A DNA stretch of 50,756 nucleotides from Fistulifera solaris (taxonomy: Eukaryota). The notes under the pieces were generated by a model that ran no database searches, was not told the origin of the DNA, and saw only the letters and a list, made by a program, of their open reading frames with translations. The translations under genes were made by a program, and so were the position numbers. Position 1 is the stretch's first letter. Each line of letters opens with the position of its first letter. Below, piece by piece: positions 140 through 46,885 of the stretch. The stretch spans positions 1,364,001-1,414,756 of the forward strand of contig AP026128.1 of assembly GCA_030295235.1 (NCBI GenBank), in the 5' to 3' direction.

Positions 140-833
140 TTACCATGCTCGCTGACCTTGAGACGCCGCTACGTAAACTGGCTCGGGCATAGGAACTCCC
201 TGCGGTTCCGAACCTTTCGTTTGCGATTGAGGGCCTTTGTAGGGCAGGAAGTTGGGACCTTTTAACTTGTTTTCACTCTCTTGTTTCGACGAAGCCGAAA
301 GAGCATCCAAGTAACTCAGATACATGGCAGCTGCTTCCGCCTTTGACTCGATTGGCTCTCCCCTGCGCAGGAGGCAAGCTAGCAAAGATTTCTTGTTTAC
401 GGCGTTCCGCCATCGAGGGAGTCCCGATGAGCCAGTCATCTCCTCTCTTGTGAATGACAGGTGCATACGTTCCGATTTGAACCGTCTCCAAAACGTCGGC
501 AGGTAGCAACCACGTTGGAGGTTTGTAAGGGGAATCAGCCATAGCCAAAAGTCGCAACATGTTGGTAACGGCGATAGAAGGATAAATTCGAGGAGGGCCG
601 TCGTGCGTTCGTCGTCCATCTTTATCGGATCGGCCGATTTTGTGAGAGGTAATAACATCGGCGGGATAGAAAGAAGGATTCTTGGAAGATCTCTCATAGT
701 CGAAATTGTCTCCTACTTTAAGAAATTCATGTAGCGCGAACGATTTCTGCGACGATCTGATTTCCTGATTCATAAAGGCAGCAACGCTGCTAAAAGACGA
801 AACGGCGAAAGCGGTGAAAAGAAGTCGGAACAT
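140..833 (-). CDS. Motif-family protein 1: putative plastid-targeted orphan, one apparent frameshift near 360
   Basis: N-terminus MFRLLFTAFAVSSFSSVAA|FM is a signal peptide followed by F. It contains FYPADVITSHKI and LLPADVLETVQI. ORF 273..833 joins the 140..697 frame at a G-run near 360, giving the C-terminus YLSYLDALS...KGPNFLPYKGPQ, which matches the gene at 46886-48120. Confidence 0.75.
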
Positions 834-1442
834 CTTGATGATTTTCTTGATAATAACCTCGATCGATTCTTGCTGACAAGTGTTGTGAATAGCTTAATTG
901 AAGCTTGATTGCACACGCAAGAGTCTTCAACTTGTTATTGAAATAACAAAACAGGTGAACCTTTGAAAGATCTTGTGCTTGTTGGCTGCTGTCGACTGTC
1001 GATCGAAGTGCGCTTTCGTGATGCTTGCGTGATGGGTGGCCGGGTTCGCTTGCTGGATCCAAAACCGTTGCGGAGTTTCATTTTATTCAGAAATCGAAGC
1101 AGATGTTGCTAGGAACGAAACGTGTTCCGTCTACTCATTTTGAGTGAGGTTAGTTGCACCGGTACTGCAAGACGTAATTTACTTAACGGACTTAAGTCGG
1201 TCGCTGAAAACGACTTGATTCAAATGTGTGACGTGTGACGACGTGTGACACGCCACAGGGAATAAGGAATCATCATCCGTGAGCAACTTCAAAAACTCCG
1301 GATCCTACAAGCTAAGGTGCGTTCTATATTCCTTTAAAAACTTGTTTCATTCTACTGCAGTTTACGCAACAATCAACGTATAAAAAGTAGCCTAGATATG
1401 TAATTTAAATGCTCGACCATTTAACCAACTCATGGTAAAAGC

Positions 1443-7091: not shown

Positions 7092-8585
7092 TGTTTTCCA
7101 GTTCTGAAATAATAGGAATGATTTCGTTCTCAAGCGAATCGTATTGTGAACAAAGTATCTTTCAATTTGTTGTGATTGAGGCGACAATATTTTAAAGATG
7201 AGAGCGTTCCGATTTCTTCTGGTTGTTGTTTAAGATACCGTTCTTTCGATGTTGCACGAGTTTTCTAATCGAAACAAGTCAGGCTGCGAGAGATAAAGCT
7301 CAACGAGTCAAGATCTTTGTCACAAATAATACGATACACTACTTTTGTTCTGAAATCAACAGAAGCAAAGAAAAAAGGAAACAGCCGCGGTTTTCCTTGC
7401 GTCCTTGAGCGCGCGCGCCGCGTACGCTCGTGACAGCTGTTGTGTTACGTCATTACCACGTCACATGCAACGGCTCCAGTAAGGACCAAAGAGAAGAGAG
7501 AGAGGGTGCGACTTGAACTTCACTGCCAAACCCCGAACATCATGCGAGCTATAAACCGAACTGTACATTCGACGATCGACACTTCTCGTTCTAGGTTAGA
7601 GCTCGGGTTGTGGGTAAAACTCCAGGTTGCTAAGGGCTGGTTACACGCATGGACGCCCTGTCGCGATAGCACCGTGAAAGTACACTTTGTGCTACACTAA
7701 GCGTCGGAACGAAAATTTCACCATGGCAAAATACCGCATAAATCCAGGCTAAACATGGTGGGGCACCGATCAATTAAATAAAGCTCGATTGATATTCTTT
7801 TACTTTTATTGTATAATTAAGGAGAGGCGGTTCCAAAGGATGTTTAATTTTCATCAGAGGCGATCGAATTGCGGAGAAAAGGCGTGATTTGATTCTGCCC
7901 GTGCTTTTTCACCATAGAAAATCAACTCGAAAGCGAGTATCTCAGCAACAGAAGCGTCAAAATTGTGGATATCGCACAATAAGCCTTCTATAGCTAATAG
8001 CTATTAGATGGCCCAATTCCCACAATTTTGCAGGTCCCTGAACGAAGTTACAGCCTCATGAATCCTATTTCGCCATGGTCGTCGTGTTTTTATCGCGGTG
8101 GAGGTTAATCAATCAACGATAATTCGACTATACGCGTATAATGTAGTTACGTATAAATTCGTACCATTTGAACGAGGGGACGGTCGAAAAAGTAACCAGC
8201 CCTTACGGCTGTGGAGCAAGGGACGGATACAAGTACTGTACTAGTAATACGAAAAGCCTAGAATTTGCTTGAGCTTGGAGAGTCGCTCTGAAAATAGCAT
8301 CAAGCAAGTTGAGATGGACCAAAGCGAATTTAGTTGGGCAAAACAAAAAAGATTTAGTAGTTTCTCGTAGAATTCTGTGCACGAAAAGTGAATAGATACC
8401 ATGCATTACCATTACACTGCTCAATGAATAACAAGAATAGTGATAATATAAATGCGTTTTCCCATTTGGAAGAACATTGTTGCTGTGCGTTTTTGGAATT
8501 GATGTCAATCAGTGTCTTCGCAAGTCGCAAGCAGCTTGTATAATATTATAGCCCCAACAAGTTGGTAACAGAACAAAACTTCGCC

Positions 8586-11165
8586 TTATTCGTTCTTGCT
8601 TTCCTTAGCTTTTTTCTTTGCCAATTCGGCCAGCCCGTTGCCATCGTCAACAATTTCTGCGTCAATAATTCCGTTAACTGACTTGCCCTGAAGTAACGCC
8701 TCTTTTTTCTTTTGATCTCCTCCAGCTTTGCTTTCTGTTTTTGAAGAGCTGCTTCGGCTTCTTTCTTTATTTCGGCTTCTTCGCGAGCTATTTCCGCCAA
8801 GATTGCGGCTTCTTTCTCAGCTGCTTCCTTCCTTATACGCGCTTCTGCTTGAAGTCTTGCCGCTTCTTTCAAAGCAGCATCAACCTTGTTTTCACTATCA
8901 TCTGTAACACCCTCCGCTGTTTCCTTCTTTACGGGTTCGTCTGTCTTTTTCTGACTTGCCTTTTCCGCCCACCGAGCTTGTTGTGCTAATCGCTCTTCTT
9001 CAGCTTTGCGCGCTTCTTCTGCCCACCGAGCTTGTTCCGCTTTACGAGCTTCTTCAGCTTTCTTTGATTCTTCCAACCATCGAGCCTGTTCTGCTTGTCG
9101 AGCCTCTTCGGCTTTACGAGATTCCTCCGCCCAACGAAGTTGCTCCGCTTGGCGGGCTTCTTCTGCTTTTCGGGCTTCTTCCAGCCAGCGCGCATGTTCT
9201 GCTTTGCGTGCTTCTTCCGCCCAACGAGCTTGTTCAGCTATTCGATTCTCCTCTGCTTTCCGAGCCTCTTGTTCCATCCGGGCTATTTCTGCAAGACGGG
9301 CTTCTTCTGCTTTTCGAGCCTGTTCGACAAGTCGCGCTTCTTCAGCTTTTCGTGCTTCCTCTACAAGTCGTGCTTGTTTCGCAGCTTCCCGAGCCTCTTC
9401 GGCGAGTCGGGTTTGCTCGGCCAAACGCGCTTCTTCCGCTAGGCGAGCTTCCTCTGCTAAACGGGCCTGTTCAAGTCTACGCGCTTCTTCAGCTTTTCTT
9501 GCCTCCTCCGCAAGGCGCATTTCCTCGGCGATACGAGCCGCCTCTGCTATACGAGCTTCCTCCGCCAAACGCGCCTGTTCAGCCAATCTTGCTTGCTCCG
9601 CCAAACGAGCTTCTTCTGCCTTACGTGCCTCTTCCGCCAAACGTGCTTCTTCTGCTTTACGCGCCTCTTCCGCTAAACGTGCTTCCTCTGCAAGTCGTGC
9701 TTGCTCCGCCAAACGAGCTTCTTCCGCTTTACGCGCCTCTTCCGCTAAACGAGCTTCCTCTGCAAGTCGTGCTTGCTCCGCCAAACGAGCTTCCTCTGCT
9801 TTACGTGCCTCTTCCGCCAAACGAGCTTCCTCCGCTTTACGCGCCTCTTCCGCCAAGCGAGCTTCTTCAGCTTTACGCGCTTCTTCCGCTAAACGAGCTT
9901 CTTCGGCAATTCGTGCTTCCTCTGCCTTTCGAGCCTCTTCTGCGAGACGTGCTTCTTCCAGACGAAGTGCCTCTTCTTCTTTCCGCGCTTTCTCCATGAG
10001 CTGCCTTGCCTCCTGTTCTGCTTTCTGGAGCTCCTCGTACTGCTTTTGCGCAAGTTTTGCAGTTTCTATTGCCTTTAGCGTAGCCTGGTGCGCCGCTTCA
10101 GCCGCTTCGGCTGCTTTCTTTGCGACTTCCGCCTCCTTTGTAGCTTTTGTACTAGCCAACTGTGCAGCCGCTGACATTTTTGAATGAATTGTGTCGGCAC
10201 CATTTATCGATCCCTTGATGATTTTGGAAGTAATGCGAATCTCGTCTTCGACATTCTTGCCAATGTAGTCATCGTACTGATCTGGACTAGCAGCGGGCCA
10301 TTTTCCGGTTCCCGTAGGCTTGGACGCAATCAAGGGCTTATTCTCCGGCATATCCGGTGCTCCCAAGGCCTCGCTACCCAGTTGTCGAACCCAAGTTTGA
10401 CGCGGAGCAGGTGGAGGCTGAACGCGAATTTTGTTCATGACATCTGGTTGAATGTCATCTGCAGGGGTCGCTGTGGAATAGGACCAGCTGGACGTCCACA
10501 CACTTTTCCCCATGTTTTTCCGAGTCTCCATGTATTGTTCTCTCGCAGCTTCGGCTGCTGCGTCACTGTCGAGTGCATCCGTGCCCAACTCGTTAACCCA
10601 GGTTTTCTTTCGAGGTTTCTCTTCGGCAATTCGAATACCTTTAGTGATATCAGTTCCAATCTCGTCATCGTTGTGGGACTTTTGTATGCCATGAGCTCGA
10701 CCAAACAGTCTTTGGCTCTGTTTTCGTTCGAATCACTCCTTGTTCGTCGACTTTATAAGATTGCGTCGGTGTCGCGGGCACAGGCTGATCAAATGTCCCT
10801 GGTGCTTGTTGAGTGATGCGTATTTTATTGAGGACTTCTGAGCTGAATTCATTATCAAAGGAGGAACTGGACGGCGTCGGTAGAGGATTGATAGGCGCCC
10901 CATTCTTTGGCTTTGAGTTTTCTTCTGTACTTGAATCAATTCGAATACTCCTAAGATTCTCTTTACTGATGTAATCTTTATCATTTGAAGAGGCTGACCA
11001 CGATGCTCTCGGCGATTCCTGATGCAAAAGCGCACGCGTTAAATGTTTTGTATTCGTCGAACGATGCAGCGAAGCAGGAACAAAAGCAGCTGCTCCTGGG
11101 AAAGCTTGACTGGAAGCGAACAGCGCAGCAACTACAGCAGCCGAGTATTTAAATGAAAGACCCAT
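8586..11165 (-). CDS. Motif-family protein 5 with a long (EEARKA/EEARLA)n charged helix, apparent frameshifts near 10685 and 8705
   Basis: MGLSFKYSAAVVAALFASSQA|FP. Repeated VW[ST]SSW, EVLNKIRI / DITKGIRI / PDVMNKIRV and TWVxxLGx[DE]AL. About 330 aa of 6-residue E/A/R/K repeats. An alternative frame at an A-run gives the C-terminus EKEALLQGKSVNG...KESKNE* ending at 8586. Confidence 0.8.
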
Positions 11166-11757
11166 ATTGTACTAGTTACTCTTTCTCTGGTATTTTGATG
11201 TGATGAAGCTGAAAGAGAACAGCAGCGTCAATGCAAATTATCGTGAAAGTAGTTTTTATTTACTTCAAAACGGAACATCAACAACGTTCGGTGGTGGTGA
11301 TGTTCGGTTGTCGCGGCGAGAAATTTGAAGCGTAAAGCGAAGACAACCTTTACGCTGCGACATATAATTTCGCTAATTTCTACTAAACGGTTTGATTACT
11401 TAGGATCTTTTCGTCTATCTATCCATGTGTTATGCGAAAATGTGACCGTACATATCTGTACCCTACTATAGAAGTGCATACAAGTTACGGAGTACTTACT
11501 TTCTGAGGAAGAGTAATTATGACGTACGTCACTTCTTACTTAGCGACGACTCGTGACTTATTTCGTGACATCGAGATTAGTGACTGACTGCGGTCCGTCT
11601 GTCAGACGTTGTATGGGGCATTTTTCGTTTTTGCTATAATTATTGCGACGATAAAAAATAAATCCGCTCCTCATTATATACAATTTAACCATCATTATTC
11701 GTAGTTTTTCCTTTTTGTTTCTTGCGAATTGCCTTTCTGTTACTTAGATACAATCAC

Positions 11758-18613: not shown

Positions 18614-19113
18614 ACATGGACGCTTTTGCTTTAAATTACGCTTGTGTCTCTTGCTACTTATAGGTAAAGCTAAAGTAAGTATAGTAACCTTTAATTTGTT
18701 GCTGAGACCTAATTCAAACTAGACCGGCCGAAGAGATGATAATACTTTCATTATATTATAGTGTTGGGGAGCAGCCGTAGTTTTTAACGTCGCACCGTAA
18801 TAACCACATTGAAGTTCAAATCCGCTGTTGCACACGTCACTTGGGCTATAAAAATGTGTGTAGAGGACTGTCTTGCGACCGGTTCTTTTCCGTTGACAAC
18901 AAGATCTGGATTTTGATTGGATCGTGTCGTCGTCGAACGTTGCACGCACGGAGTGCCATTTTGAGGAGTGTTGACGACGTTTGCGACATCAACACAAAAA
19001 ATGCATCTTGAAAGATTTGGCGAGTGTTTATTGCTTCATTATTGCTTCGTTTTCATTGCTTTCTGCTGTATTTGAATAAAGCAATCTCTGTCCTCAAACT
19101 ATAGCCCTAAAAA

Positions 19114-21994
19114 ATGAGCGGAATCTTTTTCCTTGTTTTGTTAAGTTGCTTCGCAGAGACACAAGGCGCTTGGGTCAGCAACAGTCCCCTTGTGTTAACG
19201 ACAACTCAATCTGTACGATGCGCCTCTCAAGCATCAAGTTACAATGATCCTTTCGCTTTTTCGGGTCAGGTCTTACCTCAGGGTATTTTAGGAATGTTTC
19301 GTGAACCGTCAACGAACAAAATGCCGTGGAAAGGATCCGGTGCTGTAGGCTTTCAAGAACCAAACGCAATTCGAGAGATGTCTATTCTCGATAGAACCTC
19401 GCCAGCTCAAGCAAAGGCAGAGACTGAAAAGAGTCAACAATTCAAACTCTCTCAGGCATCGGAGCCTACCTCAAAGAGGAGCGAATTAGTCCCTTTCTTT
19501 CAGAGATCGGATCCTAATTTCATGTCACCGGATGTCATGGCATCTGTCAGGATCAACCAACAGCAGTATCAGCTTCCTCAATTAAAAAATACGGTGTCAA
19601 GCGATTCGGCGAGCCGAAAATTGCGTGATGCTGCCATTTTGCGATTCGAATCGAGTTCTTGGGCTGCGGCAAATCTCAAATCCGAAAAAGCATCCGCGGA
19701 TGTACTCACTCGAGTCAATATCGGTATTGGTGCTCCTATTGCGGGCAAGTCATCGGCCCGTGTCGAAAATGTTACCAAAGGAACACAAGAATGGACTACG
19801 GAAAAAACGATCAAGCCGTCCAAGGATTCTGCGGATGTGCTGGTCAAAGTGCAGATTCATGATGAGATTGTGAATGCACCCGCATCACAGCGTGTCCAGG
19901 CTACAATTGCTACAAAACCGGATCAACCCGATGTAATGGATAAGGTAAACATCAACGAAGGGAAAATAGCGAATAACTCGGGTGCTACGGCCAAACCAGC
20001 AAAGGCATCCGCCGATGTGCAAACGCCTGTCAAAATTCATGAGGATGTCAAGGTCGAGAAGGTTGCGGAGCCGACCAAGGAATCGACCAGTAGCCAGTCG
20101 AAGGGAGCTGCACCATCTCCAACAGTACAAATTAATGGTGACAAACAGGATGTCGTCAAACCGTTCAATAAGAGTAACTCTCAGCCACCCATCGAGCCTA
20201 TTCTCGTCGATAAGTTACCGGAAAGCAAATACAAAAACGACTTGGATGATATTATTACTGTGGATTCACAAGTGGACACTCCTCCTACGAACACCCCATC
20301 CACCACGCAGGAGGCAACAGCAAATAATTCATCGGATTTGAAACCACCGGCCGACAAGCAGGAACCTACCGGTCCCTCTGTGCCGGTTGCAAAAACATCA
20401 GCGGAGTCTAAAGAGTTACTGAGTTCCGTTCAAATCACTAAGGATGCCAACCCTGCTCAAATTGCGAAACCAGACAAAGATTCTGCCGATGTTCTTACGT
20501 CCGTCAAGATTCATGCAGAGACAACGCCGACTCCAGTGGCTAAGCCGACAAAGGAATCTGCCGATGTCTTGACGCCCGTCAAGATTCATGCCGAAGAAAA
20601 GTCACCTCCTTTGGCAACCCCTACGAAGGAGTCTGCCGACGTTCTTACACCCGTTAAGATTCACGCTGAAAAGAAGCCGGTACAGGTAGCAACACCGCTG
20701 AAAGACTCCGCTGATGTTCTAACTCCAGTGAAAATCCACTCAGACACGAAGCCGACTTCATCATTTGCCAAACCATCTAAAGAGTCTGCTGATGTTCTCA
20801 CGCCGGTCAAAATTCACGACGATAAGCCACCCGTACGAACCGTCACAGCGGTGAAAAAGTCTGCCGATGTTCAAACTTCGGTTAAGATTCATTCAGACAA
20901 AAGACCTTCTCAAACGGCCAAACCCAGCAAGGCCTCTGCTGATGTTCAAACGCCTGTCAAAATTCACGAAGATGTAAAGCCGGCCCCAAGAGGAACGCCA
21001 CTGAAGGACTCCGCCGATGTATTAACTCATGTTAAGATTCACGCAGAAGAAAAAACCTGTCCGAGCAGTTGCGCCGGTCAAAGATTCGGCCGATGTTCTC
21101 ACGCCAGTCAAAATTCATGCAGACGAAAGGCCTAAACAGACTCCAACACCTCTGAAAGATTCTGCTGATGTTCTCACGCCCGTCAAAATTCACGCAGATG
21201 AGAAACCTGTGTTGGCGGCTACCCCGGTAAAGAAGTTAGCCGATGTTCAAACGCCAGTGAAGATTCACGCAGAAGACAAGCCGAGAAAACCTGTTACACC
21301 ACTAAAAGACTCCGCCGACGTCCAAACGCCAGTTAAAATTCATGCTGAGGAGAAACCGAGACAGACTGTTACACCGCTGAAAGACTCCGCTGATGTTCTC
21401 ACACCTGTGAAAATCCATGCAGAGGAGAAACCGAGACAGACTCTTACACCGCTGAAAGACTCTGCGGACGTCCAAACGTCTGTCAAAATTCATGCAGCAG
21501 AGAAGCCAAGACAAGCTCCTACACCGTTGAAGGACTCTGCAGATGTTCTCACGCCGGTCAAAATTCATGCTGAGACGGTATCGAAACCACTTACTAGACC
21601 TTCCAAAGATTCGGCCAATGTTCAGACTCCAGTCAAAATACATAGTGAAGACCAGTCAGCGACAAAAGAAAGTCCGACTGATTCGCACATCACCAAGTCG
21701 GCTGTAAAGTCGAAAGCGAAAAACGTAAACGGCATCAAAGACACTGCTCCTGTCACAGCAACTACGCAAGCATCATCGAGCGAATCGGCAACAACGGATG
21801 TTACTGTCGGAGGCATTCAGAACGATTCCGTCAAAGATTTGTTTGCGAGTAGCGTGATTGCAGATGTTATAACGAATGTTAAAATGTACGGGGACCGGAT
21901 ACCAGCGGCAAGCGCGGCCGAGTCAAAGTCGCAGAGCGGTCTGAAATGGAAATCCGATTTTGATCCGAATCGATGGGCCCCGCTTAGCTATTAA
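19114..21994 (+). CDS. Motif-family protein 8: multivalent repeat protein with 16 tandem K[DE]SADV[LQ]TPVKIH units, one apparent frameshift near 21052
   Basis: MSGIFFLVLLSCFAETQGA|WVS. The ~26-27 aa repeats continue unchanged from ORF 19114..21135 into 21029..21994 across an A-run. Confidence 0.88.
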
Positions 21995-28448: not shown

Positions 28449-29548
<1,100 letters not shown>

Positions 29549-29589: not shown

Positions 29590-29862
29590 GTTAAGGGCAT
29601 GGAAAACCATTACAGTAAGGCTTACCAGTAGACTCGCTAGGTCTCTAGATTTCTACTCCGTATTATTGATTAAACAAATTTGGAATCATCGGTGTCTGGC
29701 GACATAAGGATAACAGAGATTCTGTCGTTAAGGGCATGGAAAACCATTACAGTAAGGCTTACCAGTAGACTCGCTAGGTCTCTAGATTTCTACTCCGTAT
29801 TATTGATTAAACAAATTTGGAATCATCGGTGTCTGGCGACATAAGGATAACAGAGATTCTGT
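29590..29862. repeat. Tandem duplication, two copies of about 136 bp (period 137)
   Basis: GTTAAGGGCATGGAAAACC...ACAGAGATTCTGT at 29590-29725 and 29727-29862. Confidence 0.92.
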
Positions 29863-29873
29863 ATAGATTACAT

Positions 29874-30478
29874 CAAACAAAGATACTATGGTCGTTCCAG
29901 AAATTCTGGAATCAGTAATTTGGGTCATACAAAAGTCTGTGTTCGTTCCAGAAATTTTGGAATCTATACTTTAGAACAAACAGAGATTCTGTGGTCGTTC
30001 CAGAAATCCTGGACCCATTGGTTTGCGTCAAACAGAGATTCTGTGCCCGGTCCAAAAATTCTGGAATTGTTGTGTTGGGTCAAACAGAGATTCTTTGATC
30101 GTTCCAGAAATTCTGTAATCGAAGCTTTGGATCAACCAGAGATTCTGTGGTCGTTCCAGAAACTCTGGAAAATGTGTTTTGGAACCAACAGAGATTCTGG
30201 GGTCGTTCGGAAATTCTGGACCCGTTTTTGGGTTCAGACATAGATTCTGTGATCGTTCCAGAAATTCTGGAATAGTTGTTTTGGGTCAAACAGAGATTCT
30301 GTGGTCATTCCAGAAATTCTGGAATCTATATTTTGGATCATAGAGAGATTCTGTGCCCGTTTAAGAAATTCTGGAATTGTTGTATTGGGTCATACGAAAG
30401 TCTGTGGTCGTTCAAGAAATTCTGGAATCTATATTTTAAATCCAACAGATATTCTGTGGTCGTTCCAGAAATTCTGAC
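29874..30478. repeat. Degenerate ~52-bp minisatellite, about 12 copies
   Basis: Consensus is close to CAAACAGAGATTCTGTGGTCGTTCCAGAAATTCTGGAATxxxxxTTTTGGGT, with the internal dyad TTCCAGAA-A-TTCTGGAA. Confidence 0.9.
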
Positions 30479-39566: not shown

Positions 39567-39971
39567 GATATGAAAGAAGGTGAAATTATAGAGAAAATGA
39601 GCACAAAATCTGTAATACATTGCGCTCTCGCAAACTCCGGGATGACTGGTGGCTGGGAATAAATAAATAGCGACGAGCGCGAGACGCGACGACGACAAAA
39701 TACGAACTGGAAACCCAAAACGCCGACGGAAGACGAAACACAAAACTGTACCAGTAACGGATAAAGCGCAGAAAGTTCTCTACATCCTCCGGAAGAATGT
39801 ATACTATGCACTGTAGAGTATCTTATACTGGTGCGACACTAAATGAGGCACAGAACCAAGTCGACTTTGACTAGGTACGGGAAAGAGGAAAGAGACAATG
39901 CTATCAATTGTTTGATTTGAAATACATTATACATATTAATACTTGAAAGGGCTGCACCTCAGAACTCAGAA

Positions 39972-42900
39972 TCAATTGCTTTGCCCGTCGTCCCATCTTC
40001 TCTGAGACATGGAATCAAGATACGAGCCACCACCAAACCAGCTGTTCTTCACTTCAGGATACACTTGAGTGCCTCGTCTGGGCTTGGAGGAAGACGTATC
40101 GCTATCCGACTTAGTTTCCGTGTAAATATCGACATTCTCGTTGTTGTTGACATCGCGGTAACTAGATTCAGAAACAGAAACATCTGCCGATGACCGATCG
40201 TCTTGCAAGTTAGAGTCTCCGTAGCCATAGCGGGCAAAAGGATTTTGGTTGGGATCGGCTCCTTCTTTCGGATTCCATTCCGGGTTTGGAAACAAAGAGG
40301 GGGGCTGCACTGAGAATTCCTCTTGTTCGAGAAATGCTGAAGAAAGAGGTTGTTCGTCGTCGGCCATAGACTGCTCTTGTGGCAACTGCGCCTCGAATTC
40401 TGAAAGAGGGTCCTCTTGTACAGAATATCCATTTGTCTGACTAGATTTATACAAAGAATCCAGATACGAGCGCATTTGAGGCCGGGAAGCCTCTGCAAAA
40501 CTGATAGCAGGGGGATAGTCATCGCGCTCTGAATCGTACATGGTCTGAGTCTCTGTGTAATAGCCACCTGGATCGATTCCAGGAAAGTCAAGAGAAGGCA
40601 CAGGCTCGCTACCGTTCTGTTCTGTGACGTAAGAACCCCAATCAAAGACGCTATTTCTTTCTTTCGACTCCTCATCAGGCCGTCGCATAGAATCAAGATA
40701 TGATTTTCCGTTTTGCCAGCTAGAGGACTGAGCGTCATTTATTGCCGCAGGGCGCTCATTTAAATCTTCGACACCTAAAGGTGGAACACCGCGGTACTCT
40801 CCAAAAATATCATTCTCTCCTTGATAACCGTCTTCAAACAATGCATCGGACTGAAATGGAGAAAAATCGCCGTACGAATCTGAGAAAGGGACTTCGCTCG
40901 AGGGAAAATCGCGGGCTTCGAAGGCAGAACTTTCGCCGAAAGAACCAGGAGCATAATTATCGCTCTCAAAAGGGGAGGAATCACCGTAGGGGCTCGGAGG
41001 AAACTGTTCTTGACGTTGCTCTTCTTCGCTAGGCAAATCTATAAACACGCTCTCGGCAGGATTGTCCTGGTACTGAGGCGGCCTGCCCCATCCTCCTTGA
41101 AACGGTCCAAACCCTCTATTTGCAGTGTTGTCAATGTACTCTGGTTGCCTTGTCGTAGGCAGACCAAAGAGATTTTCGGGAATATCCAAACGGAGACTAC
41201 CGGGCTGGTAATTGCTCCTCAAAAACTCTGTGAAAATACCGCCACGATTGCTACTATTGCGATCAGCGCCAACACGATCTCTGTTAAGCTTTCGTTCTGG
41301 AGTGTTCTCGAATTCAGGGCCAGTAACTGGTCGTCTTGGAGGAGAAGAAGCATCAGTACCCCTCGTGGCTTGGGTTGAAGGAACTAGGGGCGTGCTAGTT
41401 ACGCTTGGACTGCTAGTTTGTCTTGGCGAAGGCCGTTTCATGTTCCTGAAAATCGCTTCTCGGCTAGAATCGCCATCGTAAATGGTGGCGGAGGAGCGCT
41501 CTTCATTTTGTTCAAATAGATCGGCAAAAAACTTTTTCCTATCCACATTAGCGTCATTCGCGTTGCTGGAAGTTTGTTCAGCATTTTTCGCCGGGACTGA
41601 CGATGTAGGAGATTGTCGAGTGGGTTGGACTTTCTTCTGCCTTGATGTCTGTCCAACTACAGCGGGCGCGACGGATACTTGTTGTTGCTTCGATGGCGGA
41701 GCAATTTCGGACTTAGATGTAGCTTCGACCGGCTTTCCAGTCCCCTGTTCGACCCAGGTTTCCCTTTCCGGATCCCAGTGAAGTGGAGCAGCTTCCCCGT
41801 CAATATTTTAAAACGGCTTTCCGAATAATCGCCCGAGATCTGACTGTTCTGAACAGGAAAAGAATCTTCGTCGGCAGTGGGAGCGTCTCCGAAGTGGGCT
41901 CTCGTTGCGTCTTGTAGATACGAGGTGACTCCCGATTTATAAGCCGGATCGAAAACACCATTCGGTTGTGTGTAATCAGTAATTGAACCCGAATTAGTTG
42001 TACTAGAAGCCGAGTTCCAGGACGAAACAGAACCTTGATTTACGCCTTGAACTCTTCCACCTCCGGACAAACTACCGCTAGGATCGAAAGTACCAGAAAC
42101 TGTTCGTGGTCGATTAAAAACGCCCTGTGGACTGTATGTTGAGGATGAAGGACCGAGCGGAGACGTAGGACGAGAATCCTGAGACGACGCGAACCAATCG
42201 TTTCCGGAGCCACCATCACCGCCACTTGAGAAGTCCTGTGGAGTGGACGAAGGAAAAATTGTCGATTTGCCCAAAGTTTGTTTGAGTACATCAAAAGCCC
42301 ATGGATCCCATTTCTCTGCACGACTAAAAGAATTGGAGGACAAAGAATCCGAAGATCGTGAAGAATCGTTCCCCCACGAAGGTTCGTTTGATGGCGGTGA
42401 TGGTGGCTCCGGAGCAGGAAATGACGTTGATTTACCCAAAGTTTGACTCAGTACGTTGAAAGTCCGCGGATCCCACGTTTCGGTCTTTTCATACGAAATC
42501 ATGCGTTGCCCAGGCTGTGGTGTCGGAGAATCCTCCACTTGATCACGACCCGTGGAAAAGTCTTGCGGAGCAGACGATGGAAAGTGCGTCGATTTCCCGA
42601 GTGTTTGACTTAAGACATCAAACTTCCAAGGATCCCATGTTTCTGCGCGTTGAAAGGATGACCGAGGAGAAGAGTCTCTCGTTGACCCCGATGCCTCATT
42701 TGTTGACGACAACGAAATGCCTGTGTTGGCAAAATCTTCGGGAGAGGACGACGGAAACATAGTGGATTTTCCCAGAGTCTGGCTCATAACGTCAAATTTC
42801 CAAGGATCCCAGCTTTTCGCACGATCAAATGATGGATCCGATGATGCCTGGCTACCAACACTAAGGAATGAAGCATCTTGGTTGCCACTGGAATCAGAAG

Positions 42901-45900
42901 ACGCTTCATCGGATGCATAATCGGCTGGAGAGGTCGAAGGAAAAATTGTTGATTTTCCCAAAGTCTGACTCATAACGTCGAATTTCCAAGGATCCCAGGT
43001 CTCTGCTCTTTCGAATGCGCCTCGACTTGGAGAAGGCGCTCTGGCCCTAAGAGAAGTCTCTAGCCCCGATCCGGCAAAATCTTCCAGGGTGGACGATGGA
43101 AACTGTGAAGATTTTCCTAGTGTCTGACTCATTACATCGAATTTCCAAGGATCCCACGTTTCTGCTCGATCATAGGCATTAGTAGAGCGCTGACTGGAAC
43201 TAGCACCACCACCGTCCGCCGAGTAATCCTGTTTCGCGTCGCCTGACTCTGAATAAGAATCCGATCCAGCAAAAGTGTAGTCCCAACCTTGATCATCCTG
43301 CTGAGTGTCGAGTATCACATTTTCCGATTCAGAACCGCCCCCTTCACCAGACATCTTTGACTTCGCTAACTGATTCACAAAAGAACCAAAAATTACTTGG
43401 TGGCTTTCTTGGGTCCCAGTCCTCAGCGACTGAATCGCTCCTTATTTCGTCATCGACTATGACAGTAGGATTGGAAGCCGTACCGCCTTGCACTGGCTCC
43501 TTGGGTAAGCTATCATTCGCAACAGCTTCCACATATGCGCCAAAATCACTAGCGACCTTAGGCGTGCCGTCCGCTCTAGTATCTTCTACCGGCATGCTTC
43601 CTTTCGCTACCTCTTTCACAAAAGAACCAAACTCCTCTACCGGCTTCGCGGATCCACCACCAAAATCCGGCATCATATCCTTCGCGATTTCTTGTACAAA
43701 AGCGCCGAAATTTGTCGGCGGCTTAGTTGGATCGAATTCGATGCTGCTAAGAGGTGCCTCGGACTTATAAGAGCTGGGTGGACTAAACGTATCTTTTGGT
43801 AATAGAGGAGCGGGAGGGGATCCGGGCTCAAATGACGGACTTCCTGGAGCAAGACTGTCGTTCGGCAATAATGGTGCAGGAGGCGAGCGGGCTTTGAAGG
43901 CTTGGACGGTAGTGCCGGTATTCACATCGGGAACAAGTGGAGCTGGCGGAGATTCTGACGCAAAATTTTCGCGAGCAGTAGCATTGCTCTCGTCAGATAT
44001 CAGCTGCAACGGCAGAGATGTAGTATTTTTGAAACAGACAACGCGGCTGTTGCAGAATCCAATTGCGTGGCAGCATCAGAGCTTTCTGGCGTGCTTATTG
44101 TCGTCTCATTTTGCAAGATGTCGACCTTAATCGTGACGTCAGCTTTATCACCATCTACTGGCATGCTTCCTTTGGCCACCTGCTTTACAAAGAGCCAAAC
44201 TCCTCTACCGGCTTCACGGATCCACCACCAAAATCGGGCATCGTATCCTTCGCGATCTCTTGTACAAAAGAGCCGAAATTTGTCGGCGGCTTAGTTGGAT
44301 CGAATTCGTTGCTGCTTAGAGGTGCGTCGGACTTATAAGAGCTGAGTGGACTAAACGTATCTTTTGGTAATAGAGGAGCGGGAGGGGATCCGGGCTCAAA
44401 TGACGGACTTCCTGGAGCAAGACTGTCGTTCGGCAGTAATGGTGCAGGAGGCGAGCGGGCTTCAAATGCTGGGACGGTAGTGCCGGTATTCACATCGGGA
44501 ACAAGTGGAGCTGGTGGAGATCCAGGCTCAAACTTGGGACTTACTAATGAACCACTCTCTTTCGGTAGCAACGGCGCAGGAGGGGGGCCGGGCTCAAAGG
44601 TTACGCTATAAGGTGTAAAGTTGTCGTCGGGCATGAGCGGCGTGGTACGAGACGAGGACACGATCGGAAAAGGGGGTGCGGCGTCTACATCAATATCATC
44701 GAGCGGTTTGGAAGCTTCGAGATCCACCGATGGGGAAGGCGCGATTGGAGAAGAAAGTGTGGCATTCTCCTCTGAGGTACTATCGAGTGTGTCCAATCGC
44801 TTAGTCTCGTTGCTGGAAATCATGCTAATGACCGAAGATGCAACGTCCGCTGCACTTGTGCTAGCCAAACTGAAAGATTCGTTTTTAGCAGACTCAAAAC
44901 TTTGATCGAGAGAAGTAAGGTTCGACTTGCGCTCAATAGGCGGCACAGAAGTTGACCGTTTTCGATCCGACTTGGCGGGTTCATCCAACCACGTCACCTT
45001 CATCTTTGGTATCTTCTTGATTAGCCGCTTAGGCGTAATTTGCTCCCCCTTTTCCTAGCTCATTTGGCTGCGATTCAGAAGTCTTCAATACAGGCGTTGT
45101 ACTGTTCGATAGCGTCACGTCTATCGACGACGATGGCAGCGACCTCTCTTCTTTACAAATAGTTGAAATGTCTGAAACGACGTCCGTTGCATTTGTTGCG
45201 TTCGCTATTCCGGCATCCACAGCTATAGTGGTATTTTTCGCAAGAAAACTCGTTGATTTTTTCGACGGAAAAGGAGAATCTGTGTCGACCGGGACGGCAG
45301 CTTCAAAAGTCGGGTTGTCCCTTGAAATTGATAAATAAGCCTGAACCAAGGAATCATTTGAACCTACGGTAGACACAAGCGTCCTGGTCAAATTAGTTGA
45401 CGGCCTTTTCTCGAGTTGGTTCTTTTGCAACGAGTTAGCCGGTAAATTCGATTTCGTTGCCGTCGGCTGCGTCGCATTCAAATCGCCAAAAAATCCCGCC
45501 AAAGCCCTCGCTACCGAGGATATCGGTTTCTTGTCAACACCAGATTTTGTGTCATTAAATGTTGAACTGTTTGTATTATTCAGTAAATAACTGTTTCGAC
45601 CAGTCGGTTCGTTTTTGAGAACGGTGCTGTTGGTGTTTTCTTTGTGAATGAAACCTTTCGTATCAGTTGTAGCTGTTGAGTTTCTTTCGCTAAATTCATC
45701 TGGCTTCCGCTGTGCGAAAAGCGAAGTTGTCCACCGTCGACCTTCTTTCATTCTGGTACTGCCATGTCGCTTATCGAAACGAATCCGGGAAAGTGGTCCG
45801 ACTACCGTTGCCTTGTCATCTTTCTCTGAAGTCGATTGTTTGCTGTTCGCTTTTCTGCGTTTGCCGATCGCTCGACTAAGATCCTCATCTTCAATGTCGA

Positions 45901-46062
45901 TATCTCTCTTGTTAGTGCTCTCTGGAAGGGAATGAAATGTAATTGTAGGGCGCCGCAATCGAGATGGTGCAAAGGGACGGTGACCCATCCCTCCGCATCG
46001 ATCACAAGATGAATAAGAAGGATAGGAAGGCAGTAAATCGCTCGTTTCCGTGTTTGTCGCAT
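39972..46062 (-). CDS. Motif-family protein 9: ~2000-aa disordered multi-repeat protein split by about six apparent frameshifts
   Basis: MRQTRKRAIYCLPILLIHLVIDAEG|WVT. ORFs 45802..46062, 45029..45988, 44185..45003, 43344..44009, 41657..43378 and 39972..41546 abut or overlap, mostly at homopolymer runs. Repeats are PPAPL[LV]P, FG[SA]FVx[EQ]xAK, 6x WDPWKFDVMSQTLGKS-like and 3x SYLDS[ML]. Confidence 0.75.
43585..44521. repeat. Intragenic direct duplication: 43585-43953 and 44154-44521
   Basis: Two highly similar ~368-bp blocks encoding the PPAPLLP and FGSFV repeats. Confidence 0.9.
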
Positions 46063-46885
46063 TCTTTGTGTGAGTTTATATCAACAATTCGAAGTAAATT
46101 AGCATTGAAGCCCCATGTCCTTATTTATTTGTCCGAATGAAAAGGCTTCGCACTTCGCACTGTTCATTCATTCGTTTTTGTTTTGCTGCGACGATTGCCA
46201 TCACGATGCAACACGAAAACGAGACACGAGACGACACGAGCGCTTGGAACTCGGCGAGCAGATCTTTCGTCAAAGTTGCAGTTCTACACTTCAGTCTTAT
46301 ACAGTGAGCAGCAGGTAAGAACAGATGGCTGTTTTGATTAGTAGACTGAGTACCACACTCAGTACTTCAACTTGTATAGTTCATCGATCGGATCGCCATT
46401 TTTGAAGATTTTCGTTGCTTTTAAGTAAGCGCATGTTCAACGCCGTATCATGGATTGTATTATAACCAACCGAAACTATCTTTTTATAAACTAGTACGCG
46501 TCTGTATAAAAAGATTCCTGATGGCAGACAGCACAATCCCGAAAGGACTGATGTCATCGATGTGTCTCTCCGTAGAATATCTACGCGTTTGTCGTAGAGA
46601 AAAAAATGGAAACACAAGGTGACGTGTCCTGTCCGCCACTCATGGAAAACGCAACGTTCAAGTCTGAGTACACTAAGGCTGTATATAACATACATTACGT
46701 CTGTCGCTCTCTTTCTCGTGCGTTTCATTCTCAACTCGCAAATCCGCCGACAACCATCACAAAACAACAACAGTCGACGATCGACAATCAACAACGTACA
46801 GTAAACAAACAGCCGCTTTTGTCCCTCTTGCAGTTGCAATCACGCTCCTCGCTTGATATTGTTTAGAAAGGCAGCCTCACTGATA

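Follow-up and report, generated by a model that had tools for sequence, protein, structure and literature searches.

The window analyzed here, 50,756 nucleotides of the diatom Fistulifera solaris (C13:1364001-1414756, in a genome of 51.7 Mb and 62 contigs), runs into a chromosome end marked by ~102 copies of TTAGGG at 50140-50756. At 4-10 kb from this telomere, on the minus strand at 39972..46062, lies a gene for a long repeat protein that the assembly presents as seven frame pieces separated by six breaks. Contigs from four public runs (two studies), compared with the assembly over 39600-48300, differ from it by one base at each of 45970, 45045, 44188, 44025, 43388 and 41794. The first five differences are present in all four runs and the last in three of them (run X2 has none there, at a depth of 10.5), with the differing letter at 41794 and 43388 carried by only part of the X2-X4 depth. 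When all six corrections are made, the frame runs free of stops from the ATG at 46062 to the TGA at 39972, 2,030 codons in all, and omission of any single one of them brings a stop into frame. Introns and programmed frameshifts at the breaks were considered and rejected, as the run contigs list no joints across 39600-48300 and supply the missing or extra letter. Runs X2-X4 belong to one study, their RNA origin is only a guess and no run is recorded as RNA; the contigs of X3 and X4, which cover the gene with empty flanks, are not counted toward expression.

One gene and its leader

Three database proteins show the frame unbroken. P0001 (FisN_23Hh002, Fistulifera solaris, 1,677 aa) corresponds to residues 354-2030 with 1,676 of 1,677 residues identical (one substitution), P0006 (hypothetical protein, 2,022 aa) to residues 9-2030 with 18 substitutions and zero gaps, and P0002 (FisN_23Lh002), the model of the sister copy, agrees in 1,295 of 1,481 aligned residues. 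Because the run contigs carry the frame-keeping letters and P0001, P0002 and P0006 are unbroken, the six breaks are understood as assembly errors, and the locus holds, as we can say with near certainty, a single gene with a single 2,030-aa product. The first-pass annotation of the window had joined six open reading frame fragments into one hidden gene: the single gene stands (run contigs, P0006), the count has to be corrected to seven pieces and six breaks, and the gene is not hidden, being already in the databases as a hypothetical protein (P0001, P0006). Contig C14 carries the region once more, at 91% identity. This copy has two breaks in common with the present locus and three errors of its own, one of which masks the equivalent of the first break (45970), and its frame also ends at a site equivalent to a third break. 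Repair of the frame from this copy alone was rejected as misleading, since two errors are common to both copies. The breaks, together with those in the C14 copy, are what could speak for several short genes or for a decayed gene with real stops; the letters supplied by four runs from two studies, the unbroken database proteins and ratios of nonsynonymous to synonymous differences (pN/pS) far below 1 rule out such a case at the DNA level and leave it a negligible probability.

The first 25 residues (45988..46062, minus strand) form a signal peptide, judged by eye and by hydropathy, that ends A-E-G. Residues 7-32 are the sole hydrophobic stretch, and there is no membrane helix beyond the leader. 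Residue 26, at +1, is W, and the next 21 residues contain three Arg and zero acidic residues, giving a transit-peptide-like stretch at residues 26-47 (45923..45987, minus strand), inside which the first assembly error (45970) falls. The same leader is found in P0006 and in the C14 copy, in support of the signal peptide plus W reported earlier. In diatoms, plastid leaders of the ASAFAP type carry F, W, Y or L at +1 (PMC4329603), and the present leader agrees with that rule by eye. It probably leads the protein into the plastid. The FisN_23Hh002 and FisN_23Lh002 models, neither of them annotated, begin at residue 354 and are therefore without the targeting leader. A signal peptide is common to all secretory routes, and specificity of the low-confidence plastid rule is 0.82 (PMC4329603 Table 1); a protein of the secretory pathway outside the stroma (periplastid space, endoplasmic reticulum, silica vesicle or cell surface), with repeats that attach to constituents of the wall or matrix, would also suit a chain that is Ser/Thr/Pro-rich, acidic and encoded near a telomere. 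We regard such a location as unlikely, in view of the W at +1 and of the stretch after it, with its three Arg and no acidic residue, of only 3 Cys in the whole chain (1 or 2 past the leader region, 0.1%), and of the occurrence of the tail word SYLD, described below, with plastid-type leaders.

Motif classes and the selection on them

Past the leader, all features lie on the minus strand. Residues 48-488 (44599..45922) are a low-complexity region, and residues 26-350 are basic (pI 9.8), residues 1-353 being absent from the P0001 model. Block A (44171..44598) holds four PPAPL[LV]P repeats at 22-residue spacing, FDPTKPP and two FG[SA]FV helices; block B (43515..43964) holds three PPAPL[LV]P repeats, FDPTKPP and three FG[SA][FY]V helices. 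Block A, which P0002 lacks (it is ~190 aa shorter there), has arisen recently by duplication of block B, the two agreeing in 370 of 405 bases. WDPRKPP and a sixth FG helix follow at 43361..43418, an aromatic-DP turn and then an amphipathic helix, in an outline that appears to resemble the WDPW unit, likewise a turn then a helix. Six such WDPW units of 26 aa stand in Ser/Gly/Asp spacers at 42251..43174. A middle spacer (40995..42250) has YSP, two FDP and WDP as single words and a weak SYLQDA copy at 41906-41923. The acidic, Phe/Tyr-rich tail (residues 1691-2030, 39975..40994, pI 4.05) contains the helix motifs SYLDSM (40686..40703) and SYLDSL (40452..40469) and a terminal third, GGGSYLDSMSQR (39999..40034), with GGGSYLDSM; the three are 78 and 148 residues apart, and the final 30 residues are identical in P0001, P0002, P0003 and P0006. 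All four repeat types noted in the first-pass annotation are there. Their strict succession is not, given that PPAPL and FG alternate (four and two, then three and three) before WDPR-FG and the six WDPW units.

In shuffles of the 2,030-aa protein no motif class reached its observed count: aromatic-DP occurs 12 times vs 1.1, WDP 8 vs 0.2, FG helix 6 vs 0.02, PP.PL 7 vs 0.07 and SYLD 3 vs 0.04. The motifs named in this protein are accordingly all present and above chance. No Pfam family matches the protein. The mature chain has a pI of 4.59 and the repeat region one of 4.6, with Ser at 15% and Pro at 10%. AlphaFold2 gives a mean pLDDT of 37 for the repeat region from a single sequence, and FoldIndex is below 0 in 66% of windows; on this single-sequence fold and simple index the protein appears largely disordered, as is expected of a pyrenoid linker. 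The WDPW units follow one another at 53, 62, 58, 54 and 55 residues, inside the 20-120 residues at which the repeated structured elements of linkers are spaced (PMC11570498). By analogy, the outline would be that of a pyrenoid sticker-and-spacer protein.

The WDPW unit has the pattern [FY]x[RK]xxxWDP[WR]xFxV[ML]xQTLGKSxxFP. Among 11 aligned copies 13 columns are invariant, including D, P, Q, T, G, K and S, and a short helix is predicted with a pLDDT of 66; the units cover 15% of the chain. Between P0001 and P0002 the differences number 1 in 156 residues in WDPW, 1 in 32 in SYL, 1 in 40 in FG and 2 in 48 in PPAP, vs 180 in 1,205 in the spacers; between P0001 and P0003 the motif classes have none (0/156, 0/32, 0/30) and the spacers 161 in 1,013. 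Against the C14 copy, pN/pS is 0.01 in WDPW, 0.06 in SYL, 0.04 in FG and 0.25 in PPAP, vs 0.46 in the spacers. The sticker-and-spacer build proposed earlier is borne out in that the motifs are under far stronger selection than the spacers. Codon pairs among the six WDPW units comprise 145 with silent differences, 97 with residue-changing ones and 148 that are the same, from which the units are recognized as old repeats maintained at the protein level.

The distribution of the unit is narrow. In this genome 12 of 12 WDPW matches fall in the gene and its C14 copy, and the unit is found also in P0001-P0003 and P0006. Among 8,000 candidates of 596-2,000 aa the WDPW region has 3 homologues. The hidden Markov model search with the repeat that had been proposed earlier was run with HMMER against 1.84 billion representatives and returned 3 matches, of which only P0002 is real. 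P0004, with a 27-aa tandem repeat in five near-identical copies and W-S-P-W...LGK in the WDPW register (E 4e-5), is taken as a chance match, not proven so, and the third match is unrelated. Metagenome contigs gave 560 pattern matches and 0 confirmed ones; there is none among PDB sequences, and the Atlas yields no usable match for repeats or tail. The tail has no homologue among shorter proteins, the lengths to which that search was limited. Neither gene nor motif was found in the literature, where the absence is weakly tested, searches with the motif letters being swamped by unrelated words. Judged from these searches, the WDPW unit appears to be a new, narrow motif confined to Fistulifera-type proteins.

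The SYLD helix in the window, the genome and other algae

Two neighbouring genes carry the SYLD word. One, termed protein 10 in the first-pass annotation (46805..48120, plus strand; three 1-base errors at 47145, 47611 and 48027), has a signal peptide plus W, three aromatic-DP words and the end SYLDTLS ... KGPNFMPYKGPQH; the other, protein 1 (140..893, minus strand; two frame pieces here, a single frame in the C14 copy), has a signal peptide plus F and SYLDALS ... KGPNFLPYKGPQ. Lying 47 kb apart, both end in SYLD[AT]LS followed by KGPNF[LM]PYKGPQ, and they are likely sister genes. The KGPNF.PYKGPQ motif is common to these two and absent from the 2,030-aa protein, which has no 5-mer in common with its two SYLD neighbours. 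The word is found in both, for an expectation of 0.09 over 8,532 aa (2 of 200 shuffles), and the 2,030-aa protein does share it with proteins 1 and 10. The aromatic-DP link asserted earlier survives in part, with the neighbour at 46805 enriched (3 vs 0.27) and the gene at 19111-21994 near chance (1 vs 0.07, 20 of 300 shuffles).

Across the genome, the pattern SYLD[STA][LMI] has 18 true matches, 14 within genes and 4 in short frames; 6 of the 14 are this gene and its C14 copy. The other genes are a giant repeat gene on C40, a CruP-type flavoenzyme (C40, C41, C49), a protein with light-harvesting complex (LHC) motifs (C17, C18) and RelA/SpoT (C23, C24). The scrambled control SLYD gives 16 true matches, none in a frame above 161 aa. 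With copies merged and this gene excluded, 4 of 8 SYLD matches vs 0 of 11 SLYD matches are genic (p 0.018), and 3 of 7 when the RelA/SpoT match is also left out (p 0.043). That match sits at what we take to be a conserved helix before the TGS domain of these enzymes and probably reflects the enzyme's own helix. Of the 9 true matches to a second SYLD pattern, 4 belong to the two neighbours with their copies, 4 to short frames and one to a helicase. The C40 giant (L170:4424-7099, L148:1-3971) has an AFAP plastid leader, SYLESL helices near its start and many modules of FSPVR plus PYL[DA]xL, with 17 FSP and 18 YLxxL words in 1,122 aa. The flavoenzyme gene (L147:2830-5999 on C40; copies on C41 and C49) has a leader, SYLDSL and a long Pro/Asn-rich arm. 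The gene at L152:1886-4042 (C17; copy on C18) has a leader, introns and a disordered tail ending SYLDTL; it carries what we take to be two LHC-type motifs, gives no Pfam match and is a candidate thylakoid tether.

A search for long homologues of the flavoenzyme returned 75 matches. Arms were analyzed in 42 rows at 48-73% identity, besides three Fistulifera-type rows, and the named rows are diatoms. The motif YL[DE][STAN][LM] is found in the N-terminal arms of 11 of the 42 CruP-type rows, with 0.11 expected (9 rows after merging of three near-identical ones), and in 1 of the 30 remaining rows; one motif-bearing cluster includes a Phaeodactylum tricornutum protein. A looser motif occurs 56 times in the arms (5.8 expected) vs 5 times in the enzyme cores (10.8 expected). 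In these homologues the helix is retained within arms 170-1,400 aa long, in many cases directly behind the signal peptide. A matrix trained on 54 arm sites, with our own motif as its seed, ranks the three SYLDS[ML] sites of the 2,030-aa protein at the top, the terminal one with 22.5 bits, SYLDSL with 14.4 and the first SYLDSM with 11.4, vs a 95th percentile of 11.1 bits for the best shuffled score. The FG helices were tried as variants of the SYLD helix and rejected, their scores of -0.4 to 2.1 bits being at chance level. The SYLD link reported in the first-pass annotation is thus real, and wider than had been claimed, extending to genes with plastid leaders and to CruP-type arms of other algae.

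Two of the arms (P0011, P0021) match Pfam PF25195, "Diatom pyrenoid component 2" (DPC2), with E values of 2e-7 and 9e-7. The matching stretches consist of three SYLD-type helices whose tyrosines fall near profile positions 46, 70 and 90. The C40 giant matches the profile weakly (E 0.044) and, like the two arms, stays below its 70-bit cut-off. The search of this genome with PF25195 found nothing, its controls being equally silent. DPC2 is described as a hub that resides in the pyrenoid matrix of Thalassiosira and interacts with RbcS (10.1101/2023.10.26.564148). The link of the present protein to the pyrenoid would therefore run through the motif class, at two removes.

The setting of the gene is a row of low-complexity, seemingly plastid-addressed genes in the subtelomere. 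At least 8 further genes (140-21994, 46805-48120) have a signal peptide plus W or F and no telling Pfam family, and five of these leader-bearing genes have W then V or I. The gene at 19111-21994 (two frame pieces) has a leader, many 25-aa repeats of the type KDSADVLTPVKIH and the end KWKSDFDPNRW; that at 8546-11171 has a leader and a long run of EEARLA/EEARKA repeats, coiled-coil-like and with regular Trp in some. At 48197-48300 the depth in two runs jumps to ~370 with loose ends, marking a multi-copy element that adjoins the telomere, and a 16-base unit near 48358 is present three more times at 29477-29524. Next to an (AC)106 run, 29590-30476 holds tandem arrays, one with a period of 137 in 2 copies and one with a period of 52 in 11.7 copies. 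Elsewhere in the genome, whose own RbcL and RbcS were identified and aligned, the plastid contig C60 (232,645 bases) carries rbcS twice in opposite directions (97003, 210866) and is probably an over-assembled circle.

A putative plastid scaffold and its possible relation to the pyrenoid

Comparison with PYCO1 (Phatr3_J49957), the Rubisco linker of the Phaeodactylum tricornutum pyrenoid as described in PMC10288592, reveals a common outline in different letters. The two have in common a plastid leader, disorder, six repeats with Trp-centred stickers, several sticker classes per chain, a helical motif near the C-terminus, and homologues that are not detectable in other algae. The PYCO1 motif set comprises KWSPR, GTGYNP and AAEWGSM (PMC10288592, PMC13655443). 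Here the small-subunit sticker KWSP[RQ] is absent, with WDPR at residues 883 and 1197 the nearest to it; the self-association sticker GTGYNP is absent; and so is the large-subunit helix A[AS]EW[GA]SMN, DWGSY at 1808 being nearest. The terminal SYLDSMSQ helix is in a register different from that of the PYCO1 C-terminal helix. At 2,030 aa with four motif classes the protein is much longer than PYCO1 (592 aa), and its 26-aa units stand in unrelated spacers, in contrast to the 80-aa tandem repeats of PYCO1. From these features it is not a PYCO1 family member. It could nonetheless correspond to PYCO1 in function, as this diatom's main Rubisco linker with WDPW as the Rubisco sticker, and there are features that would suit such a role: six Trp-centred units at 53-62 spacing under the strongest selection, a distribution as narrow as that of PYCO1 (PMC10288592), and in WDP[WR] the aromatic-[SDN]-P form that, by eye, is also that of KWSPR and GYNP. 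We consider the role quite unlikely, mainly because the chain is acidic, the pI of 4.6 in the repeat region standing against 10.03 for PYCO1 and a likewise positive EPYC1 (PMC10288592 section 5); moreover, the units make up only 15% of the chain, and giant repeat proteins of basic appearance are encoded elsewhere in the genome, for example by the C40 gene.

Nor does the protein appear to be a member of the DPC2 family. The DPC2 profile of 105 positions, which the protein does not match, has YLDxL-type helices ~22-24 positions apart, as read from matched coordinates and not from the DPC2 sequence itself; the helix class is present three times in the protein at the much wider distances of 78 and 148 residues. 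The pattern [DN]W[RK]xx[LIVA], which we take to be the Rubisco-binding pattern of Chlamydomonas, is absent here. In that alga one shared Rubisco-binding helix spans repeat, membrane and enzyme proteins (EPYC1, SAGA1/2, RBMP1/2), as set out in PMC10473226. SYLDxL shows the same spread, across a repeat protein, a membrane protein and enzymes; binding and targeting were shown in Chlamydomonas, whereas the likeness here is one of distribution, the motif sequence being different. The same review allows that other lineages may have a common motif of their own, and in the accessible portions of PMC13159521 and 10.1101/2023.10.25.564039 no such motif is named. A speculative extension, to which we give a minor probability, is that SYLD[SATN][LM] might act throughout diatoms as a shared address for the pyrenoid, equivalent to the Chlamydomonas motif and forming the functional element of DPC2, with the present protein as a four-motif adaptor tying a six-fold WDPW-bound partner (shell, thylakoid protein or enzyme) to the Rubisco matrix.

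Based on the collective evidence, our favoured, still tentative reading is that of a nucleus-encoded, plastid-imported, disordered scaffold that may serve as an accessory multi-partner organiser of the pyrenoid network. To that end the leader would import the 2,030-aa product into the plastid, where the chain would stay unfolded and its short conserved motifs would fold upon binding. The three SYLDS[ML] helices may constitute a docking tag common to many diatom plastid proteins and could dock on the surface used by DPC2-type helices, for which Rubisco itself, or a matrix protein attached to it, is the most likely candidate. Spaced as in linkers, the six WDPW units might bind six copies of one abundant partner, with the FG helices and PPAPL runs contributing weaker contacts, and the protein would thereby tie the WDPW partner to the matrix. 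Because it is acidic, an adaptor is more likely than the main Rubisco condenser. The hub proposed in the first-pass annotation can fairly be inferred in this sense.

Several observations weigh against the pyrenoid-organiser reading. The leader was assigned by eye, and its +1 residue, W, is a weaker one than F. SYLD DNA patterns, counted raw, do not exceed the reversed controls (18 vs 9, 55 vs 49, 14 vs 16), since chance matches dominate; among the true matches, short frames hold 4 of 18 and 4 of 9, and a helicase holds one. As the matrix was seeded from the same motif, its ranking is not entirely independent, unlike the enrichment over shuffles, which is. The two arm matches to PF25195 reach 31.8 and 29.8 bits vs a 70-bit cut-off, 14 of the 16 arm-bearing proteins scanned have no match to it, nor has the 2,030-aa protein (P0006) with its tail and SYLD fragments, and two Nitzschia CruP-type homologues lack the motif in their arms. 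To these are added the acidity of the chain compared to PYCO1 and the absence of all of the PYCO1 stickers. Finally, the SYLD tag is also on a flavoenzyme and an LHC-like membrane protein, which would fit thylakoids or plastoglobules equally.

It is on account of this last point that a plastid scaffold of a non-pyrenoid structure comes close behind: its amphipathic SYLD and FG helices would attach to the surface of thylakoids or plastoglobules, or to a stromal protein assembly, and collect enzymes at that site. The tag on the CruP-type flavoenzyme and on the LHC-motif protein (which has no Pfam match) is consistent with that possibility, as are the acidic chain, the lack of PYCO1 stickers and the lack of a direct DPC2 match. 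Arguing for the pyrenoid organiser instead, the same helix type in the flavoenzyme arms matches the DPC2 profile, and the 13 invariant columns of the WDPW unit exceed what membrane binding needs and suggest a protein pocket.

Lastly, our study has importance for the way in which diatoms pack Rubisco and deliver proteins to the pyrenoid, which is an open question. PYCO1 is of limited conservation, and a search for a linker in Thalassiosira yielded none (10.1101/2023.10.26.564148). The database models are without the leader, and targeting screens would therefore skip the gene. What appears to be new, on the sequence evidence, is an acidic, four-motif, plastid-addressed disordered protein that combines a private repeat with a shared tag. 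The gene offers two short peptides that are testable: the shared helix with its indirect tie to DPC2, and the private 26-aa unit under very strong selection.

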